64,000 bases of DNA, taken from contig JBAZTV010000001.1 of NCBI GenBank assembly GCA_041661765.1, positions 7,755 through 71,754 of the forward strand, in the 5' to 3' direction. The stretch is from Candidatus Shapirobacteria bacterium (lineage in GTDB: Bacteria; Patescibacteriota; Microgenomatia; UBA12405). The position numbers and the translations under genes were made by a program. Under the pieces are notes generated by a model, which saw nothing but the letters and a program-made list of their open reading frames with translations, was not told the origin of the DNA and searched no databases. Below are positions 31,718 through 63,790 of the stretch, piece after piece. Numbering within the stretch: the first letter of the stretch is position 1; every line of letters starts with the position of its first letter.

Positions 31718-32098
31718 ATGATCAAAGAAATAAAAAACAAAATTCAATTTGCAGCTGTTGCTGCTCCAATCTACGCCGCTCAAAGTTTAGAACTTACTGG
31801 TAAAGAGGGAAGCTTTTCTAACCTCGAAAATTTAACCATTAACGGTATGGTTTCTGGTGCTATTAGTTTAGTTTTAATTGTCGTGTCGTTAGTTTTCTTC
31901 TTTATTCTTGTCATCGGTGGTCTCAAGTGGATCACTTCTGGTGGAGATGAAAAAAAGGTTGCTGCCGCTCGTGCTGAAATTACCAATGCTTTAATCGGTT
32001 TAGTTATTGTCTTTGCCGCTTGGGCCATTATGAAACTTATTGGCTCCATCTTTGGCATCAACATCCTTGGAACTCTAACCATTCCAACTTTCCAATAA
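31718..32098 (+). CDS. VirB2/TrbC-like pilin candidate, paralogue 5
   Basis: TM helix, loop SGGDEKK, TM helix. Followed by a terminator hairpin. Confidence 0.55.
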   Translation: MIKEIKNKIQFAAVAAPIYAAQSLELTGKEGSFSNLENLTINGMVSGAISLVLIVVSLVFFFILVIGGLKWITSGGDEKKVAAARAEITNALIGLVIVFAAWAIMKLIGSIFGINILGTLTIPTFQ

Positions 32099-32114
32099 AA
32101 TCAATTTGATTTTT

Positions 32115-32144
32115 CACCCCTCCAATAATTTGGAGGGGTTTTTG
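32115..32144 (+). terminator. Intrinsic terminator after pilin paralogue 5 (CACCCCTCCAATAATTTGGAGGGGTTTTTG)
   Basis: An 8-bp GC-rich stem followed by a T5 run. Confidence 0.6.
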
Positions 32145-32244
32145 TTTAGACTTCTCCTTTTTTTTAATAAAAATAAAAGTGCCCTGTCAAGGGAAAGGTG
32201 GTACGAAGTACCAAAGGGTTTTAACTTTATAGTATAATTAATCC

Positions 32245-32598
32245 ATGAATTTAATCTCAAATATTTTCTCTCCTCCCCCAGTTTATGCCCAATCAGTTTG
32301 GAATAGTACTTGTGTTAAAGATACCGACGTCGCCACTATCCAAGGTTTTAATTGCCTTTTTGCTAATATTGCCCAAGTTATCGTTTATTTTGCTGGTCTT
32401 GCCTTTTTTATCATGTTCATTCGCGGTGGCTTCAGTTATCTAACTTCCAGTGGCGATCCAAAAAAAACAGCTAAAGCCACTTCCACCCTCACCCTGGCCA
32501 TTATTGGCCTAGTTGGAGTTATTATTTCCTACCTAATCATCAAATTCATCGGTGATTTTACAGGCATCAATATTACTGAGTTTAATATTCCCAGTTAA
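32245..32598 (+). CDS. VirB2/TrbC-like pilin candidate, paralogue 6
   Basis: TM helix, loop SSGDPKK, TM helix. It has its own upstream TTTATAGTATAATT element, identical to the one before paralogue 1. Confidence 0.55.
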   Translation: MNLISNIFSPPPVYAQSVWNSTCVKDTDVATIQGFNCLFANIAQVIVYFAGLAFFIMFIRGGFSYLTSSGDPKKTAKATSTLTLAIIGLVGVIISYLIIKFIGDFTGINITEFNIPS

Positions 32599-34085: not shown

Positions 34086-35659
34086 AGCAATATTTTTTTA
34101 TGCTAAAATTATCTACAATGTCCGTCTCAAATATCTTACAGAAACTCAATTTCCGCGATACCAAATTAATTCCCCAATTTCCCAAATTAAATAAAAAAAT
34201 TAAATTTGCTTCCATTTTAATAGCTTTCGTTTTTCTAGGTTTTCTAGGACACAAAATCCTCGCCGCCGATACTGCCATCGAAAAATTTAAAGCCAAACAA
34301 GCTGCTATAGACAAGGGGAACAATCAAGAATCCTGGATGAACGAATCCATGATGAGTAATGCCATGTCTATTAATACTGCCATTGCCGGCACCATTCCCG
34401 ATTCTGTTCTTAATGGCACAGTCACCTCTTGGATCCCTGGCGGTATGATTGGTTTCACCAACAACGCTATCGCCACTCTTTATAATCCACCTGCCTCCGG
34501 TGTTCAGTATATTGCCGAAACTTTCAACAATTTTCTCGGCAAACCAGCCTACGCTACTAATGGTTATGACGGTTTAAAAGGTATTCAAAATATTTGGAAA
34601 TCCTTCAGAAATGCCGTTTATATTCTCTTTTCAATAGTTTTTGTTGGTATTGGCATTGCCATCATGCTCCGAGTCAAAATAAGTCAACAAGCCGTTATTT
34701 CCATTCAATCCGCCATACCTAGCTTAATCACTAGTCTTATTTTAGTAACTTTTTCCTATGCCATCGCCGGACTTCTTATTGATCTAAGTTATGTTTTTCA
34801 AGGTTTAGTTCTCGCTATACTTTTCAGTTCCAAAGGTGGATTAAATTCTGAACTTTTCCCCGGTTTTCTTAGTATTAGCCCTACATTTTCCAATCTTGTG
34901 ACTGCTGATTTTTGGACTGTTCTTCGTCTGACCTACAAAGCAGTCCCCATCGCAACTATGTCCGCACTATCAGGCATTGTTGCTGGAGCAATTGCTGGTC
35001 TTATAGGCGGATTCACAACTCTTATAACTGCTGGTATAGGTTGGGTCCCTGGCTTAATCGCTGGAGGCGCTGTTGGTGGGTTAGCTTTTATTCTTATATT
35101 TGCAATAATTCTAATAACAATTATCGTAAATGTCGTTAAGTTTTTCATTGGTATGGCTAAATGTTTTATTAATATTATTTTAAGGATAATTCTTGCTCCT
35201 CTTGAAATTGGTATGGGAGCAATTCCCAACAGTAAAATGAATTTTTCAAGTTGGATTTGGAATATAATTGCCAATTTAGCCGTTTTTCCACTCTCTCTTA
35301 TTTTCTTAGTTTTAGTTAACATGATTATCGACAGTGTCAACACAAGTAATCTTTGGGCTCCTCCAATGCTCGGCGGCAGTTGGTTATTAGGTCCTCTAAT
35401 CGGAATTAGCGCTTTAATGATTCTTGCCAAACTCCCAGCCATGATTCCAGAATTTATATTCCAACTCAAACCATCTCCATGGGGCAAAGCCATTGGTGAA
35501 AGTTTCGCTTCAATTGGTAAAACTGGTAAAATTGGCGAAGCTATTACAGGTGAAGGTCTTAATAGAGCATCAGATCTAACTGGTGAAGGCAATCGGTCAT
35601 GGCAAAGAGCCCTCAGAGGAGCCAACACCATATGGCAAAGAGCTCATAATAGACACTAA
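34076..35659 (+). CDS. Large polytopic membrane protein (8 or more TM helices), VirB6/TrbL-like by architecture
   Basis: 527 aa with multiple long hydrophobic helices separated by short loops and Gly/Ala-rich helices (GIVAGAIAGLIGGFTTLITAGIGWVPGLIAGGAVGGLAFILIFAIILITIIV). No enzymatic motifs. Confidence 0.45.
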   Translation: MFIKQYFFMLKLSTMSVSNILQKLNFRDTKLIPQFPKLNKKIKFASILIAFVFLGFLGHKILAADTAIEKFKAKQAAIDKGNNQESWMNESMMSNAMSINTAIAGTIPDSVLNGTVTSWIPGGMIGFTNNAIATLYNPPASGVQYIAETFNNFLGKPAYATNGYDGLKGIQNIWKSFRNAVYILFSIVFVGIGIAIMLRVKISQQAVISIQSAIPSLITSLILVTFSYAIAGLLIDLSYVFQGLVLAILFSSKGGLNSELFPGFLSISPTFSNLVTADFWTVLRLTYKAVPIATMSALSGIVAGAIAGLIGGFTTLITAGIGWVPGLIAGGAVGGLAFILIFAIILITIIVNVVKFFIGMAKCFINIILRIILAPLEIGMGAIPNSKMNFSSWIWNIIANLAVFPLSLIFLVLVNMIIDSVNTSNLWAPPMLGGSWLLGPLIGISALMILAKLPAMIPEFIFQLKPSPWGKAIGESFASIGKTGKIGEAITGEGLNRASDLTGEGNRSWQRALRGANTIWQRAHNRH

Positions 35660-35671: not shown

Positions 35672-38278
35672 TTATTTATTTTTTTCCAAAAAAGTTTTCA
35701 TTAATTTCTTGGCCACTTCAACATTCCTTGAATCAATAGCTCTTTTCAAATCTTGATATATTCTTCCAGAATCTTTATTCTTAATTTCCTTTCTATTGAT
35801 CTTTTTAAATTCACCCAAAATATTTTTTATTTCAGAAGACTTCATATCATAATTAAAACTATCAGCTTGCTTTTTAATAAGAGATTTTGTTTGTGTCTTA
35901 TCACTAACCCACTGTGCTTGATTTCTAATTGTCACAAAAAATGATTGAGGATTTTCTCCTTTTTTCAAATCAAGACCCATATACCTCATTATTTCATTTA
36001 AATCAACATCATTATTACTTAACTTTAAAGTTTTAATTAAAAACTCTGATAGAAATATATTATAAGCCGCTTCCACTGCCTTCCCTTCAGAATTCTTATG
36101 TGGCTGGATTTTAAGACGAATATGTTCATTTGAAAGTCGTGACATGTCTGGCCCAAAAGATCCTAGTAAAATACTAGCCCACATAGCAGGATTTGATGTA
36201 TAAGTAAAAGTCCTCTCATTATTTATATTAATAAGATCAACCATACCAAAAGCCGATCTTACTTTATTTACAAACTTATCAACATCTCTCACATCTTCTT
36301 TACCTGTAACACAATTAAAAACCAAAGCTGCAGCCTCTTGTTGATCTCTAAAAAAATTTAAAGAATCAGATTGACCTTTTGCAAAACTGAAATCAACCTT
36401 CTTCTCTTGACCTACTAATTTTCCATTATCAAAATCAGCATACTTCCACAATAATGTTGATAAAGTCTCCCCGTCTTCTTTTTCAAAATTTTTACCATCC
36501 GGTTTACATAAATCTCTAGTTCCGCAAACAAAATCAAAAAATCCATAACAAGTTTTATTTGCAAATATTGGCAAAGTCCCATCTAGAATATTTTCTCTTA
36601 ATGTTTGTTTTCCAGTTATAGGTCTCTTTAAATCTTCTTCTAATTTCATTACAGTTTGAACATAATTTCCCAACGACCCACCAAACCACTCCGCTCCAAA
36701 TATACTTTCAAAAGGAACTTCGTTTCTGGATATTTTCAATTTCCCCAATGCTTTATATTCCATATTTAAAGTTCTTACTCCATCACTAACAATTCCCGTA
36801 AACGTTGGCAATAATCTCATTCTGTCGGCTAAACTCGAATCACCAAACATGTAAAATAAATTCCAAGCAGTATAGGCATTCATTTTATCCATATAATTAG
36901 CCTCTTTCCTTCCATTTTGATTGGCTAAAAATAAAGCCATTTCTTCCTTATAATTCCTAATTTCAAGTATTTTACCAAACACATCTTGATCAATATCCAT
37001 TGATCCTTTATCCTTCCCAAAAATACCTTCTATTTTTCTATCATTTTCATCCAAAAAATAATCCCATCTACCTTTATCCTTCCCAAAAATACCTTCTATT
37101 TTTCTATCATTTTCATCCTTAATAAACTTACCATCGTTATCTTGTTTATAAAACAACTTTTTATAAAATTTCTCTTTATATCTCATACAAGTTTTTCCAT
37201 TCTGGTCTGAATATTCCTCACATAAATCATGCAACATTTTACTCATCACCAACTTAAAATCTTCATTAAATAATTTTGTAAATTTTTCATTATCAAAAGC
37301 AGAATACATTTTATTTCCCCGAATTTTATCCAAATCTTTTCCAGCATAAAGTAAACTAGCTGCTCCATTATTAACCATCACCATATATTCAATTCTAGCC
37401 TGAGTTTCTCTACCCTCTTCGGTTTTACCTAGTTTTTTAAACCACTCTGGTGGAGTATATGTCTGCCATCTCATATCATCCATAAACTTCATCGCCATTG
37501 CCGCATTTTCCGGAGATATTTCCCATCTCGCTCCTCCTCTCATCTCTTGAGTATCTGGATCAGTAGTAAATGGTTCTACATCTACATCATCATCTAACTC
37601 CCTTTGATTTTTTCCAACTTCTATATTTTTATTTTCCAAAACCACCGACACTGCCAATTGTCCATATTGCTTTTCCAAAGAATCATCTGGTTTCTCCTTA
37701 GTCTCTTCTATTATTTGTTTTAAAACATTTTTAATAGAAACATTCTCATCGTCAATAATAGACGACACATTACTATTAATATCTAAAATTGACTTTCTTT
37801 CATTTTCACTCAATCGCGAGTCTGCTTCCACTACATACTTTCCTAATCCTTTCATTTCTACTGGTAAAAAATCATCAATTTGTTGCCCTGTTAACGCTGA
37901 AGTAATCAAACCTTCCGGATAATCTCTAAAAGAAAAATTAATTGCCCTAAAAGCCGTATTACCTAAAATATTCAAATTTTCTGTTGCTATAGTTTTTTGA
38001 ATATCAGTAGCAGATGGATTTTTAAGGGTTGATTCAATACCACCCACCACACTACCTTTTTCATCTGGTTGATATTTTGTCCCTAAATTTACAAAAATCT
38101 CTTGACAAACCAATTGCGATCTTTCTTCTTCAATCTGGCCAGCAAAAATTCCACTATTATCAACCAATTTTTTTGTTATATCTTGAGTTTTTTTATTATT
38201 CTCTTTCACTCTACTAACCTCGGCTGTTTTTTTCATAAACTCCATCGGATTTAATACTGGTGCTTCACTTCCACTCAT
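35672..38278 (-). CDS. Large hypothetical soluble protein (868 aa) with an internal 21-aa tandem duplication
   Basis: Long ORF with no TM. DENDRKIEGIFGKDKG occurs twice (DNA 37005..37118). Confidence 0.45.
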   Translation of the reverse strand: MSGSEAPVLNPMEFMKKTAEVSRVKENNKKTQDITKKLVDNSGIFAGQIEEERSQLVCQEIFVNLGTKYQPDEKGSVVGGIESTLKNPSATDIQKTIATENLNILGNTAFRAINFSFRDYPEGLITSALTGQQIDDFLPVEMKGLGKYVVEADSRLSENERKSILDINSNVSSIIDDENVSIKNVLKQIIEETKEKPDDSLEKQYGQLAVSVVLENKNIEVGKNQRELDDDVDVEPFTTDPDTQEMRGGARWEISPENAAMAMKFMDDMRWQTYTPPEWFKKLGKTEEGRETQARIEYMVMVNNGAASLLYAGKDLDKIRGNKMYSAFDNEKFTKLFNEDFKLVMSKMLHDLCEEYSDQNGKTCMRYKEKFYKKLFYKQDNDGKFIKDENDRKIEGIFGKDKGRWDYFLDENDRKIEGIFGKDKGSMDIDQDVFGKILEIRNYKEEMALFLANQNGRKEANYMDKMNAYTAWNLFYMFGDSSLADRMRLLPTFTGIVSDGVRTLNMEYKALGKLKISRNEVPFESIFGAEWFGGSLGNYVQTVMKLEEDLKRPITGKQTLRENILDGTLPIFANKTCYGFFDFVCGTRDLCKPDGKNFEKEDGETLSTLLWKYADFDNGKLVGQEKKVDFSFAKGQSDSLNFFRDQQEAAALVFNCVTGKEDVRDVDKFVNKVRSAFGMVDLININNERTFTYTSNPAMWASILLGSFGPDMSRLSNEHIRLKIQPHKNSEGKAVEAAYNIFLSEFLIKTLKLSNNDVDLNEIMRYMGLDLKKGENPQSFFVTIRNQAQWVSDKTQTKSLIKKQADSFNYDMKSSEIKNILGEFKKINRKEIKNKDSGRIYQDLKRAIDSRNVEVAKKLMKTFLEKNK

Positions 38279-38389
38279 ATGCCCTAATTATACCAAATCT
38301 AAATTCCTTCTTGTTAAATAAAAAGCCTCCATGTCAAGGGAGGTGGTCTGCTTTGCAGACCGGAGGGTTTAATTTGTTAAAATTATTTA

Positions 38390-40077
38390 TGCCTTCGCTT
38401 TTACCATCCTCCAACATTTCTTCCATCGAAAACCACATCCGTTCTTATCGTTCCGCTCTTCAATCAAATCTCGAAATTACCATCAATTCTCTTTCCAACT
38501 CTCATCTCAAAATGCATTCTCTCCTCCATTCTCTCGGTCACACTAAAGAAGTAGACTTTTCTGCTTTAACTTATTCCCTCGACCGTCTTCCCAAAATCAG
38601 TCACGAAGTTGAAAAAATAATCATGGGTCAAAGCCCAGAAGTTTTTGAAGAGTCTGGTTATAAAAGTGTTTCCAAATGGAAAGAAGTTAAATCAAAAAAT
38701 CGTCGTCGAGTTGCCTATCTTAATATTCAAAAAAAAACTTTGGCCTTTTTTATTGCCTCAGTTTCCGACATTGACGACCTCATTAATATTCTTATTACTC
38801 TTCAAGTCGAATGGAATAAATTAAACCAAGTTCTTCACAAAAATTATTCCCTCTTCTCTCTTCTTCAAAAAGATATTGGATCTGAAAAATTTTTTCAAAA
38901 ATTAAACATTGATCCCAAAAAATGGCAACTATTCACTTCTTCTCTCGGATCAAATTGGCGTTCTAAAATTAAAAAAATTTATCGTTCACCCATTAATCTC
39001 AAGGTTCAACTTCTAGCCGCCTCTTGGCTCAATTACACCAAATCCACTCAAAAATGGTGGAAAAATATTGCCACTAATGTCTCTCCTGCTTTTCACCTTT
39101 CTCATCAAGAAATTTATTTTGTCTCCAGTAATACCCATAGCTTAATGAACATTTTTACTGGTTTCCCCCTTGCCCACCAGTTTGAAATTCTTTCTGATTT
39201 AAAAATCAACCATCCAACTCTTTATCAAATTTGGGAACAAATCAAATCCAAAAATTCACTTTTAAACCCTTCCGATTTTATTTATTTTGTTTCCAAACAC
39301 TTTCTTTCCCATCCAGAAGTCAAAAAAAATTATCAAACTTTTCAAAAAAAACTAAGTATTTTCAATCTCCCAAACACTAATTATCTTGATATTACTTCCC
39401 AAATTTTTCCCATAAAAAATTTAATTAAATCAAAATATCTCGACCCGCGTCTTAAAATTAAAAAACCTCTCACTCTCGAAAAATCAAAAGCTTTAATTTT
39501 AAACATCGACTATCCTCTTGGCTTTGCTGCTTATCATATTCTCAGCGAAATCATGGAAAACGTTAAAAACATTAAAGGAGTTTATATTCTAGGCAAAGCT
39601 GCTGCTCTCAATAGCGAAGTCGGTGACATTCAAGTTCCCCGTCTTGTTTTTGATGAACATACTCAAAATTCTTATCTTTTTAAAAACTGTTTTAATAGCT
39701 TTTTCCCTTTCATCAACAATCAGGGTTCAATTTTAACCAACCAAAAAGCTGTTTCCGTCTTTGGCACTTTTCTTGAAAATAAGGCTCTTTTGAATTTTTA
39801 TTTTAAAAACAACATTACTGTTATTGAAATGGAATCCGGACCCTACTTAAGCGCTATCACCGAAAGCTGCTACGACCAACAAGCCCCAAAAAAATCTATT
39901 ATTGATCTCAATAATTGCCCCTTCGATCTCGGTATTATAAATTATACTTCCGATACTCCCTACTCTAGCCTTCAAAATCTAGGCGACAGTCAACTTGGCA
40001 TCACCGGTATCGAACCAGTCACCCTCGGCAGTTTAGCAATATTACAACGAATAATTAATCTTGAGGAAGAAAAATAA
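38390..40077 (+). CDS. Hypothetical protein (about 560 aa; the ORF-track start at 38260 reads through a palindromic repeat, so the ATG at 38390 is preferred)
   Basis: Long ORF. The first 40 codons of the track ORF (KKPPCQGRWSALQTGGFN) are a repeat translation. Confidence 0.45.
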
Positions 40078-53143: not shown

Positions 53144-54262
53144 ATGAAACTTTCCCTTTTACAAGAAAATTTAAACACTGCATTAACTAATGTTTCTCGA
53201 TTCGTCTCTTCAAAAAATCAATTACCTATATTAAATAATATTTTATTGTCAACCGACAACGGTAGACTGAAACTTTCAGCTACTAATTTAGAATTAAGTA
53301 TTAATTATTGGATTGGAGCCAAAATTGAAGAAGAGGGGACAATAACTATTCCCTCAAAGGAGATAACTGAATTTGTTTCTTATTTAACCCCTGGAAAAAT
53401 TGATCTTTCTCTAAAAGGAAACAATCTTTTAAATTTATCTTCATCAAAAACCGAATCAACTTTCACCACTAATCCTTCCACTGATTATCCTGATTTCCCC
53501 ACCCTCAACCCAGATACTTGTTTTGAATTAGATTTAAACATTTTAACTCAAGCCGTTTCCCAAATTGCTTTTTCCGCTGCCACCGACGACAGTCGTCCAG
53601 TTTTAACCGCCATCCTTTGTCAATTTACTTCTGACAGTTTAAATTTAGTTGCTACCGATGGTTTTCGTTTATCTTTTAAAAAGATTAAACTAATTAATCC
53701 TATTGATTTAAAAACCGACCAAATCACCTTTTTAATTCCTGCCAAAAGCCTTTTAGAGGTCACTAAACTCGCTAAAACCAACACTAAAGTTAAAATAGGT
53801 TTAACATCTGACGAACATCAAGTGGTCTTCGTTCTAGATGATGTAGAGCTGGTTTCTCGACTTATTGAAGGGGAGTATCCCGCCTATCAAAGAATAGTTC
53901 CAGAATCTTTTTCCACTAAAGTCTTTTTAAATAAAGATGAATTAACCCAAGCTGTTAAAATCGCCTCTGTTTTTGCTAAAGAATCAGCCAATATTGTTCG
54001 TTTTAATATTAAAACCAATTTTATTGAACTTACTGCCAACGCTCCTCAAATCGGTCAAAACAAAGCCACTGTCGATGCTAAAATAGAAGGCGAAACCCTA
54101 GAAATCGCCTTTAATTATAAATTTTTAATAGATTTTCTTAGCGTTTGCAAAAGCCAAGAAATTATTATCGAGTTAAATGAATCCCTAACCCCAGCCTTTT
54201 TTCACGATCAATCAGATAAAGATTTCTCCCACATCATCATGCCAGTCAGATTGCAAGACTAA
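53144..54262 (+). CDS. dnaN: DNA polymerase III beta sliding clamp
   Basis: 372 aa with three-domain clamp periodicity. The N-terminal ...LPILNNILLSTDNGRLKLSATNLELSI is typical DnaN, and the position after dnaA is canonical. Confidence 0.85.
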   Translation: MKLSLLQENLNTALTNVSRFVSSKNQLPILNNILLSTDNGRLKLSATNLELSINYWIGAKIEEEGTITIPSKEITEFVSYLTPGKIDLSLKGNNLLNLSSSKTESTFTTNPSTDYPDFPTLNPDTCFELDLNILTQAVSQIAFSAATDDSRPVLTAILCQFTSDSLNLVATDGFRLSFKKIKLINPIDLKTDQITFLIPAKSLLEVTKLAKTNTKVKIGLTSDEHQVVFVLDDVELVSRLIEGEYPAYQRIVPESFSTKVFLNKDELTQAVKIASVFAKESANIVRFNIKTNFIELTANAPQIGQNKATVDAKIEGETLEIAFNYKFLIDFLSVCKSQEIIIELNESLTPAFFHDQSDKDFSHIIMPVRLQD

Positions 54263-54663
54263 TTTATTTTAGAAATTTGAAATTCAAAACTATCTGTTTT
54301 AAATAGTGGATTTTTTTCCAACCATTCTTTAAATTCAGTCTCAGCTTTATCTTTATCTTCTTCTTTTTCAATTAAAATTACCAACACCCCAGGTTTTAAA
54401 TACCCTGCTATTTCCATTATTTTACCTTTATAAGGTATTACTACCACCTCATTATTTTCAGATCTAGGATTGTCAGACTCATATTCAATTATAGTTGGTG
54501 TTATTATTTGTGTCGGTACTACAATCTGGCTTGGTGGCGTAATAGTAATATTTTCAGTATTATTAGTTTGTGTACTTCCATAAAAAACCTTTAATATAAT
54601 TAACACTATTACCAAAAAACCTAAAAAAAACAACATAAAATATTTTTTTAAAAATTCAATCAT
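54259..54663 (-). CDS. Small bitopic membrane protein (134 aa)
   Basis: One N-terminal TM helix; downstream of the hydrolase and VirB4 genes on the same strand. Confidence 0.4.
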   Translation of the reverse strand: MIEFLKKYFMLFFLGFLVIVLIILKVFYGSTQTNNTENITITPPSQIVVPTQIITPTIIEYESDNPRSENNEVVVIPYKGKIMEIAGYLKPGVLVILIEKEEDKDKAETEFKEWLEKNPLFKTDSFEFQISKIN

Positions 54664-54682
54664 TGTTTTATTCTAACTTAAT

Positions 54683-56623
54683 TTATAAAATTCTTGCAAA
54701 TTTTGTAAATCTTGAATAAGTTCCCATTTTTACAAAACCCGATCCTCCTCCACAAATATCAAGATTTCCCCCGGCTCCATCATGAATCCATAATAAATTA
54801 CCAGATGAATCTCTTCCTGCAAAAATTCCAATATGATCATTTGATCCCTCAATTCCTATATCACCCAATTGTAGGCTATTACTTGATATGCTTTTATCTT
54901 TCGCGCCAGCATAAATACTTGCCACATTACCCCTAGTCTCTATTCCAAGTTGATGGTAAGTCCAAATTACAAAACCAGAACAATCTAATCCATAAACATT
55001 TCTATCTGATCCAGAAGGAGAATTATTATTACCAAAGTTAGTAGTACCCCAATTCATATCAATGCCCCTCACTGGTTCACCAGATTGGTGACCTCCACCA
55101 TACCAGTAACAAACTTTGTTTAATAAAGAGCTAGCCATATCCACCACCATTTGTCCTGTAACTGTTTGGTTTGGATCAACTGTTGGTAAAACAATCGGAC
55201 CTGAAGATGAGATATATGGGGTTTCTGAAAATATAGAAGTGGAAGTTTCTGCTTCTTCCGGTGGTACTAAACTTGAAACTGAATTTCCCATTAATATTTG
55301 ATATCCAAATAATCCCCCAAAAACTAAAAGTATTATTGGTCCCATCACTGCTGCCGATACTGCTCCAATTAAAAGAAACGGCAAACCCACAATAAACATA
55401 CCACCACCAATAATTGCCCCACCTACTTTTCCAAAATTTTCTTCCAAACCCTTTTTAATTCCTATTCCCAATTTTTCCGCTATTTTACTAACTACATTTT
55501 TTAATATTTTAGCCGCCGCCGCTACTGCCACCACAATCGCCCCTATTCCAGTTGCCGAAATTGCCGCTGCCCCAGCTGCGGTTGCCGCTCCTGCCGCCGC
55601 CGCAGTACCAGTCGTTGCCGCTGCTTTAACTCCACCACTTAAAATTCCACTTAAAACCGTTGAAATACCCTTTTGAAAACCTTGTTCTGCTATGACGCCT
55701 AAAGAATTTTTTGCAAATTCACTAATTGCTTGATTTCCAATTTTGCTTATTAACTTTTGTTTTGTCCCAAACATTGTCTTATTCAGCCATCCGCCTGTCA
55801 ATTTATCCACTCTTCTATACCAACCCAAATAACCTTGAGTTCTAGAAAATAAATTACTCACACCCTGATCGTTAAAACCAGAAATTACATTTTCAAATGA
55901 TCGCACTTCTTTTATATCCTTCGGAAGATTTACATTTTTTAAGACACCTCTAATTGATTCATATCTATTTTTAATTTCTTTTACTTCTTCCGGCTTCTTA
56001 GTTAAGAAATTAGTTACGCCTCTTAAATCAGTCCAAGCATTCTCTAACTTACCTGGACCAAATTGGTTATTATTTTGTAGTGCCTCGTCTTTTTGCTCGT
56101 CAATTATACTTTCACTAAAATATATTTCCGAAACTAACTTCCCATACGCCCTTACATTATTTGATTCTTCTGCCTTCAAATCGGGATTCATTTTTTTAGT
56201 TTCTTCTAGTAGTTTTTTTTCAAAAACTTCCTTTTTAAACTCATTTATTCCATCTACATTTTCTTTCTTCCACTTATTCATCTCTATTTTTATTTTTTTT
56301 ACTTCAATCTCCGTCTCTTTTTTATCTTCTACTATTAAATTTTTTGAAACCACTTCTATCAAATCTTTTATTTCTTCTCCACTTGTTTTTATCTCTTCTT
56401 CTCCAAAAATAGACTTAATTTTAGATTCAAGTTCATTTTTTAGATTACCATCCCCATTTAAATTTTTTGTTATTTTTTCACCTAATTCTACTATTTTCTG
56501 TTCAACTGGATTTTTATTTTTTTTGTAATCATCTATATTAAAAACTTTCGCACCACCAGAAAAAACATCTCGATCAATATCTTGTAAAGCTGAACTTCCA
56601 TCCGTTCTGTTTGCCATTACCAA
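54683..56623 (-). CDS. Membrane-anchored cell-wall hydrolase with a C-terminal NlpC/P60 (CHAP-like) domain; analogous to Gram-positive T4SS hydrolases of the PrgK/TraG type
   Basis: Coiled-coil N-terminus; Ala/Gly-rich TM region (AAATTGTAAAAGAATAAGAAAISATGIGAIVVAV...); C-terminal YGLDCSGFVIWTY...H.GIFAG (Cys-His papain-like NlpC/P60 signature). Confidence 0.6.
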   Translation of the reverse strand: MVMANRTDGSSALQDIDRDVFSGGAKVFNIDDYKKNKNPVEQKIVELGEKITKNLNGDGNLKNELESKIKSIFGEEEIKTSGEEIKDLIEVVSKNLIVEDKKETEIEVKKIKIEMNKWKKENVDGINEFKKEVFEKKLLEETKKMNPDLKAEESNNVRAYGKLVSEIYFSESIIDEQKDEALQNNNQFGPGKLENAWTDLRGVTNFLTKKPEEVKEIKNRYESIRGVLKNVNLPKDIKEVRSFENVISGFNDQGVSNLFSRTQGYLGWYRRVDKLTGGWLNKTMFGTKQKLISKIGNQAISEFAKNSLGVIAEQGFQKGISTVLSGILSGGVKAAATTGTAAAAGAATAAGAAAISATGIGAIVVAVAAAAKILKNVVSKIAEKLGIGIKKGLEENFGKVGGAIIGGGMFIVGLPFLLIGAVSAAVMGPIILLVFGGLFGYQILMGNSVSSLVPPEEAETSTSIFSETPYISSSGPIVLPTVDPNQTVTGQMVVDMASSLLNKVCYWYGGGHQSGEPVRGIDMNWGTTNFGNNNSPSGSDRNVYGLDCSGFVIWTYHQLGIETRGNVASIYAGAKDKSISSNSLQLGDIGIEGSNDHIGIFAGRDSSGNLLWIHDGAGGNLDICGGGSGFVKMGTYSRFTKFARIL

Positions 56624-56635
56624 ATTATATCAATC

Positions 56636-59221
56636 TTAAACTATCCCGTCTCCAAACAATTTATCATAATCCATCTTATTGTCTTCTTTTTTAAATTCTC
56701 CCTTGTCAAGGGGAGATGTCGATTTATCGACAGAGGGGTTTGAATCAAATATTGGTTGTGGTTTTCTTGCCAATTGTGGTGGTTGAGGTATTCTTTGTTC
56801 TTCAGTTTTAACAAAAATCGGTTTTTTATTTTCCGAGACCACTACAACTTCTGGCCTTTTAAATAACACCGACTCAGTTTTTAACTCCGGTTTTATTTCA
56901 GTCATCGCTACTGTGGGATTAAAGGAGGTGTTCCGCAGTGGCGGAACGGAGGGTTTTACTTCAATTTCCACTGGTTTTATTTCGGGAACACTAACTTTAG
57001 GAGTAAAATTAATGGTTCTTATTTCATCAGTTTTATTAGCAGTCAATGCTGACTCAACTGGTTTTACCTCCATCGGTTTTATTTCTAAAACATTAAAATT
57101 AGTTGTCGTTTCAGGCATTTTAATCTCCATTGATTTTATTTGCCCTGCCCTGTCAAGGGAAGGGTTAGTGAAGGGTTTAGGTACTTCTGGTGGGACTGAG
57201 GGGTTTTGAACCGGAATTTTATTTTCAATCTCTACAGTTTTTATTTCTGGAATATTAAATTTTGGCGCCACTGGAGTCGTTTTTACCTCGACTGGTTTTA
57301 AGTCTCCCTTGTCAAAGGGAGATTTAGAGGGATTGAAAACAGCTGATGGGTTTTGAAACGGTTTCGTTTCTATCGGTTTAATTAGTGGTTTCATTCCATT
57401 ATTTGGCTTTTGATCACTCAATAAACTTTGCTTTTTTAAAATATCTTCTGGATTAGAAGTAATTAAATTATGTTCATCAGCCGAAGCAATTATTTGAATT
57501 GCCACATGGTTTTGCCCAGCAAAGAAAATTCCTTCACCTTTACTTGCCGATAATAATAATTGTTTTTCTCCCTGACTCAAATAAAATACTTCTCCAATTT
57601 GGTCAATAGCCGCACTATGTTGTTTTAATAAAATTTGAATTGAACTATTAGTAACTATTTCTTTACCATAAGCAGTTTTCAAAAAATCATCAACATCTTG
57701 GGTAATTGTTGTCACTCCCAAATAGTATTTTCTGCCTCTTTTAACAATTCCTCTTAAAAATTCAGCTGAATCATCATGTTGCATCAAATACCAGGCTTCA
57801 TCCACCACCAATATTCTTTTTTTCAATGTCTTTTTAACAACCGTCCAAATATAATCCAAAATAATTTGCATTGCCACAGGTCTCAAAGCATCTTCCAAAT
57901 TTCTAATTCCAAAAACTACAAATTTATTAGTTAAATTAACCGTTGTCTTTTGGTTAAAAATTCCCGAAAAGGATCCTTTAATATATTTTTCCAATCTGGC
58001 TGCCAAACCTTTAGCTTTTTCATCTTCCATTCCAATCAAAGATTTATACAAATCCTCAATTAATGGTGGTTCTTTGTCTTGAGTTACTGGATCAGGAGTA
58101 ATCCCTTTCATCTTATAAGCATCCATCATTGCTCTATCCATAATTGATTCCTCAATCGGATCCATTTCACCCAACATCACTTTTAATAGTTTATGTAAAG
58201 ATAAGATCTTAGTATTTAAACCATTTTCACCCTGTTCTTCGGCTAAAGTTAAATCAAACGGATTAATTTTTGAACCTTCACCATAACCAAATGCAATATA
58301 TTGGCCGCCAGAATTATCACACAATTCTTTGTATTCATTTTCCGGGTCAATCACAATAACATCCGTTCCCATCATTAATGATCTAAGAACCTCCAATTTA
58401 ATTAAATAAGATTTACCAGCTCCAGCCATAGCAAAAACAACTGAATTATAATTTGGCATTGAAAATCTATCAAAAATTACCAAAGACCCATTATGCATAT
58501 TAATCCCATACATAATTCCCTGATCATCTGATAAATCTGACGACACAAAAGGGAAAGTAGTTGCCAAAGAGGTAGTATCCATATTTCGACTAACTGCCAA
58601 TCTATCTTGGCAAATAGGTAAAGTCGATACAAATCCATCTTCCATTTGTAACGTCGCTTTTTTACTTATAATCAACAACGATCCCAAGGCTGCCTCTAAA
58701 TTTTTATTTACTCTATCCAGTTCAACTATAGAATCAGCCGTTATCGTTACATAAAGTCCAAATTGAAAAAATCTTTCTTCGCCTTTAACCAAATTAGCCT
58801 GCAAATTCAAAGCATCCTCCAATTTCGCTTGTGTTGCTGGATTAATCAATCTACCCCTTTGAATATCAGTACTTAACTCGGCCTCCATTTCTGTGATTTT
58901 TCGGCGAAGATCATCTAAAACTTCTTTTCCATCGGTCGGATAAATAAACATTGAAATATTTAAAGAAGAATCAAAGTTAATCAATGACGACAACCAATTA
59001 ATTCCCACAAATCTCGGATATGCCGCAACAAATAAAGTTCGATAATATTTATTATCAATTCTAATATGGTTAAAATCCACTTCCAAAGCTGATGGAGCAA
59101 TTATATCTTTAGTTGTCACCAACCCTTGAGTGAAATCTCTTTTATTTGGATCAACTACCTCTGTTGGTGTTGCTGGATTATTTACTACTGTTGTTTTTTT
59201 ATTAATATTAAAAAGTTTCAT
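56636..59221 (-). CDS. virB4: VirB4/TrbE/CagE-family T4SS ATPase with a C-terminal extension of about 270 aa that reads through four palindromic repeats
   Basis: Walker A VFAMAGAGKSYLIKLEVL; Walker B ILVVDEAWYLM; conserved RKYYLGVTTITQDVDDF. The tail contains SKSPFDKGDLKP, NPSLDRAGQIK and TSPLDKGEFKK, encoded by repeats at 56697..57331. Confidence 0.8.
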   Translation of the reverse strand: MKLFNINKKTTVVNNPATPTEVVDPNKRDFTQGLVTTKDIIAPSALEVDFNHIRIDNKYYRTLFVAAYPRFVGINWLSSLINFDSSLNISMFIYPTDGKEVLDDLRRKITEMEAELSTDIQRGRLINPATQAKLEDALNLQANLVKGEERFFQFGLYVTITADSIVELDRVNKNLEAALGSLLIISKKATLQMEDGFVSTLPICQDRLAVSRNMDTTSLATTFPFVSSDLSDDQGIMYGINMHNGSLVIFDRFSMPNYNSVVFAMAGAGKSYLIKLEVLRSLMMGTDVIVIDPENEYKELCDNSGGQYIAFGYGEGSKINPFDLTLAEEQGENGLNTKILSLHKLLKVMLGEMDPIEESIMDRAMMDAYKMKGITPDPVTQDKEPPLIEDLYKSLIGMEDEKAKGLAARLEKYIKGSFSGIFNQKTTVNLTNKFVVFGIRNLEDALRPVAMQIILDYIWTVVKKTLKKRILVVDEAWYLMQHDDSAEFLRGIVKRGRKYYLGVTTITQDVDDFLKTAYGKEIVTNSSIQILLKQHSAAIDQIGEVFYLSQGEKQLLLSASKGEGIFFAGQNHVAIQIIASADEHNLITSNPEDILKKQSLLSDQKPNNGMKPLIKPIETKPFQNPSAVFNPSKSPFDKGDLKPVEVKTTPVAPKFNIPEIKTVEIENKIPVQNPSVPPEVPKPFTNPSLDRAGQIKSMEIKMPETTTNFNVLEIKPMEVKPVESALTANKTDEIRTINFTPKVSVPEIKPVEIEVKPSVPPLRNTSFNPTVAMTEIKPELKTESVLFKRPEVVVVSENKKPIFVKTEEQRIPQPPQLARKPQPIFDSNPSVDKSTSPLDKGEFKKEDNKMDYDKLFGDGIV

Positions 59222-59925
59222 TCCATTTGCCCTCCTGTCACTACCGGTGCTTGATAATTTACATTTTGAACCTTTTGGCTAACGGCAGTTTCTTCATTAT
59301 AAGTTCTATAAAAAAGATCAATTACTTCTTTATTATTCAAAGGTTTTATTTCCAACCCTAGTCTCGAAAAAAGTCTCAATAAGTGATCTACTTTTGGTTC
59401 CAAATTAATTTTAGCCTTTTCTAAAATATATTCTTTAGTAAATGGTAATTCCTGACCCCTGCCTTGCTGTAAAAACATTTTTATTCCTTTAGTTCCACCA
59501 GTTTTAATTCCCAACTCCAAAGACGAAAAAGTAATCGCAATATAAAACGATTTTGATAAAATATCACTCTTTTTAACTGTTTCTTCGATAAATTTTCTAT
59601 ATAGACTAATCCTTTCCTTTAGGCGCGGGTTTAATTGCTTTTCCTCCATATTTTGCAAATTTTTTAAATAAGAACTTACATCTTTGGCATGTGATTGAAT
59701 AATAATTTGTATTGGAAAATTTAAAGAATTTATAATTCCTCCATAAGCAAAGACTAAAGCCGATTGTTCTGGCTCAGACAACAAATCAAAATTAACAGAC
59801 GACACACTTAATACCTTTGAGCAAGATCCATCTTTCATAATCACAATCCCATCAACCACATCTTCTATTGGTAAATGTTCCTGAGTACTTCCTTTAATAG
59901 CAATCTTTAGTGGATCTGTTGGCAT
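59218..59925 (-). CDS. Hypothetical cytoplasmic protein (235 aa) co-transcribed upstream of virB4
   Basis: 4-nt overlap with the virB4 start. No motifs. Confidence 0.4.
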   Translation of the reverse strand: MPTDPLKIAIKGSTQEHLPIEDVVDGIVIMKDGSCSKVLSVSSVNFDLLSEPEQSALVFAYGGIINSLNFPIQIIIQSHAKDVSSYLKNLQNMEEKQLNPRLKERISLYRKFIEETVKKSDILSKSFYIAITFSSLELGIKTGGTKGIKMFLQQGRGQELPFTKEYILEKAKINLEPKVDHLLRLFSRLGLEIKPLNNKEVIDLFYRTYNEETAVSQKVQNVNYQAPVVTGGQME

Positions 59926-59928
59926 ATT

Positions 59929-60843
59929 TTAATTATTAGAAATAATTCTAATTGGTTGAACTATTTGTTCATTTAAATCTATATTAACTCTATCAAAATT
60001 ATAACCATCTTTTTCCGCAATTATCAGATATCTACCATTTGCCAAAGGAGTTGTTATTTTAAATTGACCTAAAGAATTTGTTTTTAATACCCTTGAAGGG
60101 TTTCCTTGTTCATCTTGGACTTCAATAATTACTCCATCAATTATCGCTCCCTCCATATTCGTTGCCATACCCACTATTACATTAGGTACTTCTGGAATAT
60201 CTGGCATTGGAATAGAGCCAAAAATTGCTTTTCCTGTCGCTCCTAATTTTTCTGTTTTAAGATTTAAATTTGCTTTTTGATCTTTCCAATCTTCTACTTT
60301 TTCTTCAACTTTTTCACTCGGACTTACTTCTACTGCTAGTTTTTTTTCAGTGATTATTTTTTTAATTTCAGGTTTTGCTTCAAGTTCTATATTAATTTCT
60401 TCTTTAGTTCCACCTTTTTTTATTCCAATTACACCTATTGCATCTTTTAATTTATTTCCCCAAAGATTAGATTTTAATCGTCCTCCAGTCATTACAATAT
60501 CATCTTCATTCTGGTTTATATTTTTTGTTAAATCTAAATCAAGCCAATTTTTATTAGCCTTTCTCCGATAAATATAAATTGTTGGTGAATAAATTGCTTT
60601 TAAAAATGAAAAAATCCATACTTCCAATGGTCTATCCTCGAAAGGTATAAAAGCCAAAACTAATCCACCCCCAGCAAAAAGTAATATTAACGGCCACTTT
60701 ACCAAAATTATTAATTTAGTTGAATTAATCATTATTGCCAAAACTATTCCCACTGCCGCCTTCAAAAATTGCTTCAACGTCATATCTCCCACAAGTTTAA
60801 ATTCATAGGATGATATTTGCTGTGGAATCGCGTGCTGTTCCAT
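59929..60843 (-). CDS. Bitopic/2-TM membrane protein with an extracytoplasmic carboxypeptidase-regulatory-like beta-sandwich (NGRYLIIAEKDGYNF)
   Basis: N-terminal hydrophobic helices, then a soluble domain. First gene of the virB4-containing minus-strand block. Confidence 0.4.
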   Translation of the reverse strand: MEQHAIPQQISSYEFKLVGDMTLKQFLKAAVGIVLAIMINSTKLIILVKWPLILLFAGGGLVLAFIPFEDRPLEVWIFSFLKAIYSPTIYIYRRKANKNWLDLDLTKNINQNEDDIVMTGGRLKSNLWGNKLKDAIGVIGIKKGGTKEEINIELEAKPEIKKIITEKKLAVEVSPSEKVEEKVEDWKDQKANLNLKTEKLGATGKAIFGSIPMPDIPEVPNVIVGMATNMEGAIIDGVIIEVQDEQGNPSRVLKTNSLGQFKITTPLANGRYLIIAEKDGYNFDRVNIDLNEQIVQPIRIISNN

Positions 60844-60932
60844 CCTTTAATTCTACCAGTAAACGGTTTAATTTAAAATAAAAATGAAGTCGCCCTGTCA
60901 AGGGAGATGTCCGAAGGACAGAGGGTTTTAAT

Positions 60933-61886: not shown

Positions 61887-63105
61887 AGAAAAGTCGCCCC
61901 TGTCAAAGGGAGATGCCCGCAGGGCAGAGGGGTTTGTTCCAAAAATAGTTTTAGTCCAAGACTACATCAAAGAATTCGGAGGTGCTGAGTCCGTTCTCGA
62001 AACATTATCTGAAATTTTCCCTAAAGCTCCTATTTACACCACTCTCTATAAACCAGAATTTCTTGGTCCTCATCAATCTCGTCTCCAAAAAAAATGGGAG
62101 AGCCGGGTCCATCAAAGCTTTTTTCAATATATTCCTTTTGTCCACAAAATCATCAGCCCTCTTCGTCTTTTATCTCCCTTAGCCTTTAAATCTTTTGATT
62201 TTTCTAAGTTCGACATCATTATTACTTCAGCCACTGGTGCCTATTTCCCTAATTTAATTAACAAAAAAAGTGCCAAATTAGTTTGTTATTGCCACACTCC
62301 ACCTCGTTATCTTTATGGTCTTCCTACTGCTCGTAACTTCACTAAAAATAAATTCATTTATGCCTTAATTCAGGTTTTAAATCACCTTTTGAGAATTATC
62401 GATTTCAAATCTTCCCAAAATGTTGACCAATTTATCGCCAATTCTCAAACCACCGCCGACCGCATCAAAAAATTCTACCGCCGCGATTCCATCATTATTA
62501 ATCCGCCTATTGAAACAATAAAAGAAAAGGCGAGCGATGGTGATGTTTCCGCGCGCAATATCCGAGGTGCACTACCGAAGGGCGTGAGCACGGAAAAATT
62601 ATCATCCGAGCCATATTTCTTAACCGGTGGCCGATTAGCTCGTGCCAAACGTTACGACATCGCCATTCAAGCCTGCAATCAATTAAATTTAAAATTAAAA
62701 ATTTTCGGCCGTGATTTTGCCAATTTTTCCGATGAATTAAAAGCCATGGCTGGCCCTACTATTGAATTTTTAGGTGAAGTTACTCAAGACCAAAAAGACC
62801 TACTTTATTCCCAAGCCCAAGCTTTTATTTTTTGTTCCGACAACGAAGATTTTGGCATGGTTCCAGTCGAATCTATGGCCCATGGCTGTCCAGTCATTGC
62901 CTATAAAAGTGGGGGAACCACTGAGACTGTTATCGACAGTAAAACTGGTGTTTTTTTTGATGAATTAACCCCTAAATCATGTGCCACCGCCATTCAAAAA
63001 TTTCAAAAATTAAAAATCAATTCCAAAGACTGCATTTCCCGCGCTGCCGATTTCTCCACCGAAAAATTTGTTTCCAAAATTAAAAAACTAGTTTTTAGCC
63101 TTTAA
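61816..63105 (+). CDS. GT4-family (GT-B) glycosyltransferase. The start is uncertain: the track ORF overlaps the exonuclease by 70 nt, and the N-terminus and one internal loop are repeat-encoded.
   Basis: C-terminal EX7E-type motif ...FCSDNEDFGMVPVESMAHGCPVIAYKSGGTTETV. KSPLSKGDARRAEGFVP (61895..61940) and SARNIRGALPKGVST (62551..62593) are repeat translations. Confidence 0.65.
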   Translation: MKNKIQLKLIIKMKSKHTKPHYSKEKSPLSKGDARRAEGFVPKIVLVQDYIKEFGGAESVLETLSEIFPKAPIYTTLYKPEFLGPHQSRLQKKWESRVHQSFFQYIPFVHKIISPLRLLSPLAFKSFDFSKFDIIITSATGAYFPNLINKKSAKLVCYCHTPPRYLYGLPTARNFTKNKFIYALIQVLNHLLRIIDFKSSQNVDQFIANSQTTADRIKKFYRRDSIIINPPIETIKEKASDGDVSARNIRGALPKGVSTEKLSSEPYFLTGGRLARAKRYDIAIQACNQLNLKLKIFGRDFANFSDELKAMAGPTIEFLGEVTQDQKDLLYSQAQAFIFCSDNEDFGMVPVESMAHGCPVIAYKSGGTTETVIDSKTGVFFDELTPKSCATAIQKFQKLKINSKDCISRAADFSTEKFVSKIKKLVFSL

Positions 63106-63516
63106 TTTTCTCCATTCTTCATTCATTGCTTTATCTAGTGTTACCAGATCAACTTTATTTTTTTTACAATAATCCAATAAGATTAAATCCACCAAACCCA
63201 TTTTATTGTCTTTATATAAATTATCAAATACTTTTCCATCAAAATCTAATTTAGTTTCATTAATAAAACCAAAAATTTTATTATTCAACATGCTTATTTT
63301 TATTTTTTTGAGATCATTCTTTAAAATTCTCTTATATTTTAAAATTGACAACGTTTCAATTAAAACTAATAAATGAATCAAAGGTCTATCGTTCTTTTTT
63401 TGTAGTTTTTGAAAAATATCTACCGCTTTATCGTGCTGGCGATCATTAACATCATAAAAAGCAATCCATACACAGCTGTCAACTAATATTTTATTTTTTT
63501 CCATATAATATCTCAT
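63088..63516 (-). CDS. vapC: PIN-domain ribonuclease toxin (VapC-like)
   Basis: ILVDSCVWIAFYDVNDRQHDKA... with conserved acidic residues in a PIN arrangement. Overlaps the upstream small gene by 26 nt. Confidence 0.65.
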   Translation of the reverse strand: MRYYMEKNKILVDSCVWIAFYDVNDRQHDKAVDIFQKLQKKNDRPLIHLLVLIETLSILKYKRILKNDLKKIKISMLNNKIFGFINETKLDFDGKVFDNLYKDNKMGLVDLILLDYCKKNKVDLVTLDKAMNEEWRKLKAKN

Positions 63517-63790
63517 CTATTCTCATACTATAATTCGTTTTTTTATTACCTTTCGGTTGTGTTGCCCAAATTTTTTCCAAATCATTCCAAAATCCATCCC
63601 AATTAGGTTTCCATTTTTTTGATTTTATTTGTGGAAATACTTTTGCCACCACCACATTCCCTCTTTTTACATTAATCGTTCCCTGACCAGCAATCATTTG
63701 GTCAATATAATTAGAGATGTTATTTCTAAAATCAGATATTTGTACTGTAATTGTCATTTGTACAAAAATTTTATCAAATTTGTACATCAA
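63491..63790 (-). CDS. Antitoxin-like small protein (Phd/YefM or VapB-type) paired with the PIN toxin
   Basis: 99 aa. N-terminal MTITVQISDFRNNISNYIDQMIAGQG resembles the Phd/YefM antitoxin fold; gene-pair architecture. Confidence 0.5.
   Translation of the reverse strand: MMYKFDKIFVQMTITVQISDFRNNISNYIDQMIAGQGTINVKRGNVVVAKVFPQIKSKKWKPNWDGFWNDLEKIWATQPKGNKKTNYSMRIDEILYGKK

Follow-up and report, generated by a model that had tools for sequence, protein, structure and literature searches.

What is a gene block that resembles a type IV secretion system (T4SS) doing against dnaN in the chromosome of a Patescibacteria member, and is it conjugation machinery, a device for contact with other cells, or neither? 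The question is raised by a 64,000-nucleotide stretch of DNA from a Candidatus Shapirobacteria bacterium (Patescibacteriota, Microgenomatia; GenBank assembly GCA_041661765.1, contig JBAZTV010000001.1, positions 7,755 to 71,754), referred to here in its full length as the window, in which five open reading frames (ORFs), all on the minus strand, occupy positions 54259-60843. An earlier note written from the letters of this DNA had described a T4SS-like block, and in our profile searches its ATPase scores only with VirB4/TraC/CedB-type families and above the curated cut-off of the CD1110 family. Our results make it probable that the block encodes the module of a Patescibacteria-type T4SS that sits at the cytoplasmic membrane and supplies energy, a domesticated chromosomal descendant of the conjugation machinery of monoderm bacteria in the mating-pair-formation class FATA (MPF-FATA). 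As such it is an instance of an architecture already published in 2023-2025 (PMC12102498, PMC10633639). The 3' end of the locus behaves differently from the rest and appears to be a replaceable cassette, in which unrelated peptidase modules succeed one another behind a conserved scaffold.

A split VirB4 ATPase and its membrane partners

The block and the region upstream of it contain the following features, in the order of transcription.

60844-60932, between divergent genes: intergenic region of 89 bp separating the block from a 5'-3' exonuclease gene, likely the promoter region of the operon
59929-60843, minus strand: gene for a PrgI/VirB3-like protein of 304 residues
59218-59925, minus strand: gene for a soluble TrsD-like protein of 235 residues
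56636-59221, minus strand: virB4, 861 residues
57452-59221, minus strand: ATPase core of VirB4 (residues 1-590), whose match to the full-length VirB4 profile begins near position 161
56636-57451 including the stop codon, minus strand: hypervariable C-terminal tail of VirB4, some 270 residues with a high content of Pro, Lys, Glu and Val
54683-56623, minus strand: scaffold-peptidase gene, 646 residues from a TTG start
54259-54663, minus strand: gene for a small anchored protein of 134 residues

The ATPase carries the assignment. VirB4 scores 381.9 bits against the NCBIfam profile conju_CD1110 (NF045971; cut-off 325, E 6e-114) over profile positions 161-734 of 752, and it matches Pfam P-loop_TraG with an E-value of 1.6e-29. 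Its Walker A and B motifs, which the earlier note had judged intact, lie at residues 263-270 (AMAGAGKS) and 470-477 (ILVVDEAW, with VVDEAW at 472-477). The VirB4 protein is 100% identical to one from a Candidatus Shapirobacteria metagenome-assembled genome at NCBI. The named proteins among the 120 best homologues listed all come from Shapirobacteria, Woesebacteria or Patescibacteria, the genome relatives that carry the gene all belong to lineages of the candidate phyla radiation, and the core is 96-97% identical to its nearest relatives. VirB4 does not have the full-length architecture with its N-terminal domain. Instead, the separate 235-residue protein matches positions 3-121 of the same CD1110 profile and, because VirB4 itself aligns with positions 161-734, we conclude that VirB4 is split and that the TrsD-like protein is its detached N-terminal domain. 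The same protein also matches positions 103-235 of the Mbov_0397 VirB4 profile and NCBIfam TrsD (NF041427; E 3.2e-8, 33.7 bits, with the curated cut-off of 200 not reached), and from these scores it appears to be a remote TrsD homologue only. All 30 of the orthologues scanned match TrsD at E<0.01 and 29 of the 30 match the VirB4 N-terminal region; a search of PDB sequences with the TrsD profile found no solved relative.

The first gene of the block had been described as encoding a protein with two transmembrane segments and a carboxypeptidase-regulatory-like domain. A transmembrane scan places the segments at residues 21-39 and 44-62, within a PrgI/VirB3-like hairpin at residues 6-87, which is followed by a charged linker and by a CarboxypepD_reg-like beta-sandwich at 223-291 (E 1.8e-6; 28.7 bits, below the Pfam cut-off of 32.3). 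Against Pfam PrgI (PF12666) the window protein reaches an E-value of 3.4e-4 and 21.5 bits, below the gathering score of 27. Its orthologues match that family at E<0.01 in 28 of 28 cases, with a best E-value of 7.7e-12; the CarboxypepD_reg domain is kept in half of them (14 of 28). Three partners had been left without a name, and profiles now supply one for two of them (PrgI/VirB3-like and TrsD-like), leaving the 134-residue protein without known relatives. In WWE3 relatives, the PrgI proteins are 500-600 residues long.

The tail of VirB4 was compared with those of related loci, drawn here and below from a sample of 79 genome loci fetched with VirB4 and numbered with an L prefix. It ends in conserved PQPPQL..KPQP.F and DYDKLFGDGIV motifs, kept across Shapirobacteria and Woesebacteria as PQPPQL..KPQP.F and DYD[KD]LFG[DN]GIV, while nucleotide identity to the close relative L019 sinks to 36-68% in the tail and recovers at the extreme 3' end. 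The tail contains no tandem DNA repeats, and the VirB4 proteins of Saccharimonadia are without it. These terminal motifs may form a peptide on which a partner docks.

The genes are as tightly packed and co-directional as had been reported, with 3 nt between the first two genes, an overlap of 4 nt (ATGA) between the stop of the TrsD-like gene and the start of virB4, and gaps of 12 and then 19 nt after that; the NCBI annotation of the scaffold-peptidase has 644 residues and starts at the ATG that is codon 3 of our ORF. A scan for promoters and terminators found no terminator-like site on the minus strand within the block. It did find a promoter-like site on that strand at 60877-60850, TTTAAA-16-TAGAAT preceded by a TG, although such sites are no commoner than chance. 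At the other end, the stop codons of dnaN and of the 134-residue gene overlap at 54259-54262, so that the block abuts dnaN. The distance of about 1.4 kb previously given for dnaN is that to the end of dnaA (1.43 kb, position 52832). The arrangement of hydrolase, 134-residue protein and dnaN recurs, with identical proteins, in two independent read-set assemblies.

Relation to described systems

In the trs operon of pGO1/pSK41 and the tra operon of pIP501, conjugative plasmids of Gram-positive bacteria, the gene order is a VirB3-like protein (TrsC/TraC), TrsD/TraD, VirB4 (TrsE/TraE), a membrane-anchored hydrolase of the cell wall (TrsG/TraG) and small anchored proteins. These systems belong to MPF-FATA, the only subclass with TrsD, and TrsD homology is what the block has in common with them by profile. 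They differ in being plasmid-borne and in having a relaxase, a coupling protein, VirB6 (TrsL/TraL) and the VirB8-like TraM. They have no VirB2 pilins, whereas the genome of the block has a pilin array, and their hydrolase combines SLT and CHAP domains behind a single N-terminal transmembrane segment, where that of the block consists of a 450-residue scaffold and a swappable peptidase. The clostridial conjugative transposons (CTn2/Tn916-like) provide CD1110, the best-scoring curated VirB4 family for the block, and they too have an NlpC/P60 hydrolase (CD419/Orf14). However, their VirB4 is full-length (a 752-position profile) rather than split into TrsD and core, and they are mobile, with a relaxase and an integrase and with a hydrolase that is secreted and has no scaffold.

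The closest likeness is to other Patescibacteria. According to a survey of 3,035 Patescibacteria genomes (Quiñonero-Coronel et al. 2025, Microb Genom, PMC12102498), their VirB4 proteins form a monophyletic clade nested in MPF-FATA, TrsD is the commonest partner of VirB4, together with PrgI/VirB3, and arrays of VirB2 occur chiefly in Microgenomatia and Saccharimonadia. The same survey has relaxases nearly absent, the genes for type IV coupling proteins distant from virB4, and virB4 near dnaA, dnaN and rnpA in Paceibacteria and Microgenomatia. In Southlakia epibionticum, a member of the Saccharibacteria, a transposon-sequencing study (Wang et al. 2023, Cell, PMC10633639) showed that the homologous cluster SEML1_0006-0019, a set that includes the pilin array, is essential for epibiotic growth. 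The block has the published traits of TrsD and PrgI beside virB4, VirB2-like pilins and a dnaA/dnaN context. It shares with Patescibacteria T4SSs the set of VirB4, TrsD and PrgI/VirB3, the VirB2-like arrays, the lack of a relaxase and of a nearby coupling protein, and the dnaA/dnaN/rnpA neighbourhood seen in Microgenomatia; with the S. epibionticum cluster it further shares a wall hydrolase directly after virB4. A 2026 preprint describes tubular structures, possibly T4SS pili, at the parasite-host interface.

Differences in layout remain. In the Saccharimonadia loci of our sample the pilins lie 5-9 kb upstream of TrsD-VirB4, whereas here the module with pilins and a VirB6-like protein is 20 kb off. 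In Microgenomatia, PMC12102498 has VirB3 and VirB1 poorly associated with virB4 and VirB6 scarce, whereas here PrgI adjoins virB4 and a peptidase gene follows it in every related locus, and there is a VirB6 candidate, by fold only. Those portions of the Patescibacteria T4SS literature that were accessible contain no description that we could find of interchangeable peptidases on a scaffold ending in SSLVPP, of the VirB4 tail, or of a candidate VirB6 beside the pilins.

One scaffold, many peptidases

The gene after virB4 encodes a protein in two parts.

55256-56623, minus strand: conserved scaffold, about 450-455 residues, ending in an SSLVPP junction at residues 450-456
54683-55255, minus strand: C-terminal peptidase module of NlpC/P60 type, interchangeable, assigned by Pfam match and catalytic motifs

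The scaffold aligns as a helical domain at residues 30-265 (modelled by AlphaFold2 with a predicted local distance difference test score, pLDDT, of 85-93), an invariant KLTGGWLNKT...KIGNQ...GF..G region and an Ala/Gly-rich region with several transmembrane segments at about 325-440. The helical domain matched no known structure in the PDB by sequence or by fold, and the scaffold has 112 cluster representatives in a library of 1.84 billion proteins. The module matches NLPC_P60 (PF00877) at residues 537-605 with 30 bits, above the gathering score of 23, and has the catalytic residues Cys548 (in GLDCSGF), His597 (in DHIGIF) and His614. Pfam, motifs and transmembrane scan therefore agree with what the earlier note had seen, a membrane-anchored NlpC/P60 hydrolase with an Ala/Gly-rich membrane region. 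The analogy with PrgK/TraG that it drew holds for position and function; it does not extend to the build of the protein, in which Pfam and NCBIfam searches found no SLT or other glycosidase domain and to which the 450-residue scaffold is an addition. Tn916-like cell wall hydrolases are among the weak matches of the profile search against the PDB.

Beyond the SSLVPP junction, close relatives carry unrelated domains. The module is NlpC/P60 in the window and in L001 and CHAP-like in L019, whose VirB4 core is 96% and whose scaffold is 88% identical to those of the window; the same holds among near relatives generally, at 96-97% identity of VirB4 cores and 82-88% of scaffolds. Others have M23, VanY or CHAP, or NlpC/P60 together with Exo_endo_phos, so that the catalytic family varies while the position after virB4 does not. 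A census of 49 database homologues of the scaffold and 62 cluster representatives returned NlpC/P60, M23, VanY, Peptidase_C39_2, CHAP, M15_4, C70 and C39 modules, with none detectable in a quarter of the proteins; one scaffold thus bears no fewer than six peptidase families. When the window is compared with L019, nucleotide identity in the scaffold part is 81-93%; it falls to 36-53% from about 55300 to 54400, a segment that covers the module and the small gene, and is back at 89% at dnaN. From this pattern, the two elements at the 3' end of the locus appear to form one replaceable cassette, bounded by the SSLVPP junction and dnaN.

Some scaffold proteins carry additions that are not wall peptidases. 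In L079 (12299-15229) the second module after NlpC/P60 is Exo_endo_phos, a nuclease/phosphatase domain, and in L006 (3451-6114) the tail is alpha/beta-hydrolase-like.

The 134-residue protein, the small membrane protein that had been said to close the block, has one N-terminal transmembrane segment (residues 9-27), a Thr/Pro linker and a domain of about 70-75 residues (LPY..F.I..Y...WL..N). In 16 of the 17 related loci, a comparable ORF of 129-360 residues fills the slot that separates the peptidase gene from dnaN. The 17 positional homologues align as a single diverged family that is present with every module type, and the protein would accordingly be a member of a fast-evolving membrane-anchored family whose position is conserved. 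Profile searches found no relative of it in Pfam, NCBIfam or the PDB, and the comparison with VirB8 and PrgL that had been recommended came back empty from all three. We rejected VirB8, PrgL and TraM as identities on this absence of a profile match and on the size of the soluble domain, which is too small beside an NTF2-like domain of about 130 residues. A SpoIIIAH-like Pfam match in one of the 17 family members and matches to green fluorescent protein in the PDB search were treated as noise.

These exchanges raise the possibility that the scaffold-peptidase is directed at a host and is no housekeeping enzyme for opening the wall of its own cell. It would then be a weapon or tool whose module is changed to suit the peptidoglycan chemistry of different host bacteria, the small protein would inhibit it or confer immunity to it as a cognate partner, and the two together would make up a polymorphic effector-immunity cassette. 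Modules are swapped at very short distance, as the identities of cores (96-97%) and scaffolds (82-88%) indicate, and the motif at the junction is sharp and conserved, much like that of polymorphic toxins; CdiA-CT, Rhs and LXG proteins likewise combine a conserved N-terminal part, a junction motif, an unrelated C-terminal module and a co-exchanged small gene. The Exo_endo_phos and esterase-like add-on modules of some relatives point in the same direction, the latter as read from sequence, and Patescibacteria offer a precedent in a different operon, whose membrane-anchored N-terminal region is combined with either of two peptidase types. The small gene is exchanged along with the module, and the similarity of the small proteins follows that of the modules, albeit weakly (partial r 0.24, permutation p 0.04, with phylogeny controlled). 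However, co-variation of this strength is explained by physical linkage alone, and the small proteins are one diverged family and not the unrelated immunity families of those toxins, two findings that weaken the case for a classical cognate immunity protein. In addition, and again unlike CdiA-CT, Rhs and LXG, the modules detected are all of peptidoglycan-peptidase type and the carrier is polytopic and probably stays in the membrane of its producer: it has several transmembrane segments, no site for its release or processing can be recognised, and it thus has the look of a protein that resides in the membrane. Domain make-up varies among the hydrolases of Gram-positive T4SSs too. We therefore regard an effector-immunity cassette as unlikely. 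We are similarly doubtful of a variant in which the gene after virB4 encodes a T4SS-docked "module carrier", a conserved scaffold made up of a cytoplasmic helical part and a membrane part. Recombination would graft peptidoglycan peptidases onto it after SSLVPP (NlpC/P60, M23, VanY/M15, CHAP or C39/C70-like, now and then with a nuclease or esterase addition), a small anchored protein would be replaced along with them, and the module, aimed at the host wall, would act as a host-range determinant of these epibionts; that module exchange is more easily explained if the substrate is the wall of the host than that of the producer is an argument we entertain only tentatively. We favor a model in which the enzyme works on the wall at the site of the machine itself.

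From membrane module to machine

The components that the block lacks may be encoded at a second locus of the window.

30299-32598, plus strand: six tandem genes for VirB2-like T4SS pilins, all matching PF18895 (T4SS_pilin) above the gathering score
32598-34085, plus strand: gene for a secreted SpoIID-domain protein, candidate glycan-strand-cleaving partner
34076-35659, plus strand: gene for a polytopic membrane protein of 527 residues with at least eight transmembrane segments, candidate VirB6 analogue

Each pilin has two transmembrane segments, and one also matches the NCBIfam family Mbov_0395, a pilin-like conjugal transfer protein. A link between block and pilin array had been suspected from the start; the six PF18895 genes support it, and published work assigns such arrays to this very system. 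The SpoIID-domain protein matches Pfam SpoIID (E 6e-10) and TIGR02669 (E 3.4e-17). Its gene and that of the VirB6-like protein lie 20 kb from the block. In relatives, too, a SpoIID gene comes after the pilin array, and L082 has an additional SLT-domain protein there. The 527-residue protein has 829 homologues, none with a meaningful Pfam annotation. Its AlphaFold2 model (pLDDT 76) was compared with the PDB by Foldseek, and the five best matches all fall on chains from entries for the TrwJ/VirB5-TrwI/VirB6 stalk of R388 (E 0.011-0.2, probability 1.0-0.69, template-modelling scores 0.31-0.41); homologues follow pilin arrays and SpoIID genes in distant relatives. On the strength of this model the protein is a candidate VirB6, not a demonstrated one.

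Other genes flank this locus. Divergent beside the pilin array, 25756-30178 holds a 7TM_transglut membrane protein and three ATP-grasp genes of RimK/sugar-transfer type, and the pairing with a pilin array is kept in relatives (L082 1-1467, L083 750-3859) whose VirB6-like protein is 44-46% identical. On the other side, 35672-40077 encodes an 868-residue soluble protein without a family match, convergent to the VirB6-like gene, and then a 605-residue DUF6909 protein. The slot of the former is filled by proteins of 762-786 residues in relatives, and both may belong to the module of pilins and VirB6-like protein.

We envision a scenario in which the PrgI/VirB3-like hairpin would anchor the ATPase at the membrane, as the role of VirB3 suggests, and the TrsD-like protein, a separate polypeptide, would bridge PrgI to the VirB4 core, in place of the N-terminal domain with which full-length VirB4 proteins dock on VirB3 and the membrane; the split itself is seen in the profile matches, whereas the docking is inferred. 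Hexamers of VirB4 could then energise the assembly of VirB2-like pilins, with the VirB6-like protein as the channel. The SpoIID-type enzyme would cut glycan strands where the machine is sited, and the scaffold-peptidase would cut the peptide stems of peptidoglycan there, in the role that VirB1, PrgK, TraG or CwlT has elsewhere, and the 134-residue anchored protein may be an extracytoplasmic accessory. Because no relaxase or coupling protein was found nearby, what the system builds is most likely a pilus or conduit that serves contact with a host cell, or exchange with it, and not DNA conjugation.

The missing relaxase and coupling protein would also suit a machine that imports host DNA, RNA or other macromolecules, like ComB of Helicobacter or Ced of archaea. 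VirB4 is weakly similar to CedB (E 1.9e-13), reviews have proposed the acquisition of nutrients or nucleotides, as competence is dispensable in S. epibionticum, and the 2026 preprint ties T4SS-like tubes to feeding on host RNA. However, the CedB score is far under the cut-off of that family, and VirB4 groups with the conjugative CD1110-type ATPases instead. In the literature the import idea is purely speculative, and the window is silent on the direction of transport. An importer is thus improbable in our judgement, and a pilus or conduit for contact and exchange continues to be the model that we prefer.

Several points weigh against that model and against the assignments on which it is built. 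We know of no experiment on any Microgenomatia T4SS. Reviews state that the transported cargo of the Saccharibacteria T4SS is unknown and propose effector delivery or nutrient import. The PrgI and TrsD scores of the window proteins both fall under their curated cut-offs, and the VirB6 assignment is weak, with a best E-value of 0.011 and template-modelling scores of at most 0.41. The search for a relaxase and a coupling protein spans the 64-kb window, and such genes could lie elsewhere in the genome. In the scaffold, the loop at residues 373-391 is strongly basic, at odds with a simple model of three transmembrane segments and an outward C terminus, and the AlphaFold2 model is poor at 334-454, so that any topology given to it is tentative. 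Finally, in the PrgI fusion the positive-inside rule (RRKANK after the second transmembrane segment) would put the beta-sandwich in the cytoplasm, which is unusual for this fold.

A chromosomal locus

The evidence points to descent with the chromosome. In about 20 Shapirobacteria and Woesebacteria genomes the order GT4-exo-PrgI-TrsD-VirB4-peptidase-small-dnaN-dnaA-rnpA-yidC is kept (exo being the 5'-3' exonuclease gene). PrgI-TrsD-VirB4 is conserved in WWE3 and Dojkabacteria, and Saccharimonadia have TrsD-VirB4 with weak PrgI-like matches; dnaN is within reach of the block genes in WWE3 and Saccharimonadia. Domain searches found no integrase, relaxase or VirD4/coupling protein among the major ORFs of the 64-kb window, and there is no tRNA near the block. 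Its GC content of 0.329 shows no shift from that of the flanks (0.325 and 0.347). The synteny, the absence of hallmark genes from the window and the flat GC content lead us to conclude that the block is in all appearance a vertically inherited chromosomal locus and not an integrative and conjugative element (ICE), and they bear out the earlier statement that mobile-element hallmarks are missing.

For the block to be part of an ICE, the relaxase, coupling protein and integrase would have to lie beyond the window. Its best family matches are indeed to VirB4 proteins of ICEs and conjugative transposons (CD1110, Mbov_0397). However, the block is wedged, in an order constant across those 20 or so genomes, between the exonuclease gene and dnaN, with whose stop codon its own overlaps; flanking core genes are 60-98% identical, and VirB4 identity tracks that of dnaN and dnaA. 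The published phylogeny likewise has class-specific vertical descent, with relaxases in 103 of 3,035 genomes (PMC12102498). We accordingly reject the ICE reading as very improbable. That the ATPase is a non-T4SS translocase of HerA/FtsK type in a block unconnected with secretion, as a match to Pfam DUF87 (the HerA central domain, E 2.8e-7) might suggest, has practically no likelihood, given that all strong matches are to VirB4/TraC/TraG-P-loop families, that the CD1110 cut-off is exceeded and that the neighbours are PrgI and TrsD.

The block had also been called origin-proximal. The adjacency of dnaA and dnaN and two perfect DnaA boxes in the spacer between them (52865 and 52877) agree with this description, but GC skew does not: it is strong, lying between -0.2 and -0.49 in most of the window, and never changes sign, including across dnaA. 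It likewise has the same sign on both sides of dnaA, within about 10 kb, in all Shapirobacteria relatives examined (L003, L011, L017, L019 and L071). This leaves two readings: the origin lies away from dnaA, or something other than replication drives the strand asymmetry of this lineage.

The rest of the window is of low GC content and holds, besides dnaA and dnaN, rnpA-yidD-yidC and a 23S-5S rRNA unit; Rfam found no 16S rRNA in it. The tRNA-Ile (25545-25619) and tRNA-Ala (20967-21042) of the rRNA unit are about 4.5 kb apart, with genes in between for a DUF5684 protein, a 568-residue protein without assignment, a 90-residue ORF, a GH18 glycosidase and a VTT-domain protein. At 6-5345, a 1779-residue ORF contains a Peptidase_S74 domain (an endosialidase intramolecular chaperone) at residues 1272-1318, a feature resembling phage tailspikes that points to a surface fibre or adhesin of large size. 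At 63088-63790, just right of the glycosyltransferase gene, lies a pair formed by a PIN-domain toxin and a Phd/YefM-like antitoxin. Among the related loci, many records of metagenome-assembled genomes titled "uncultured Gammaproteobacteria bacterium" or "uncultured Candidatus Saccharibacteria bacterium" (L001, L002 and L004, for example) look mislabelled; their VirB4 is 84-97% identical to that of the window, with the same synteny, and they are Shapirobacteria-like.

Implications

Before that of Patescibacteria, no T4SS had been shown to be essential to the growth of its bearer. To what is known of this system the window adds nothing fundamental, being a textbook Microgenomatia case, and what it offers are handles: a wall hydrolase defined by position and scaffold rather than by catalytic domain, a candidate VirB6, and a recombination cassette whose variation could be set against host identity. 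If the gene after virB4 were a carrier of exchangeable modules, a T4SS locus would harbour, hard up against dnaN, a polymorphic cassette shaped by an arms race. And if the swapped peptidases were to track the wall chemistry of the host, they would allow the host range of uncultivated epibionts to be predicted from their genomes.

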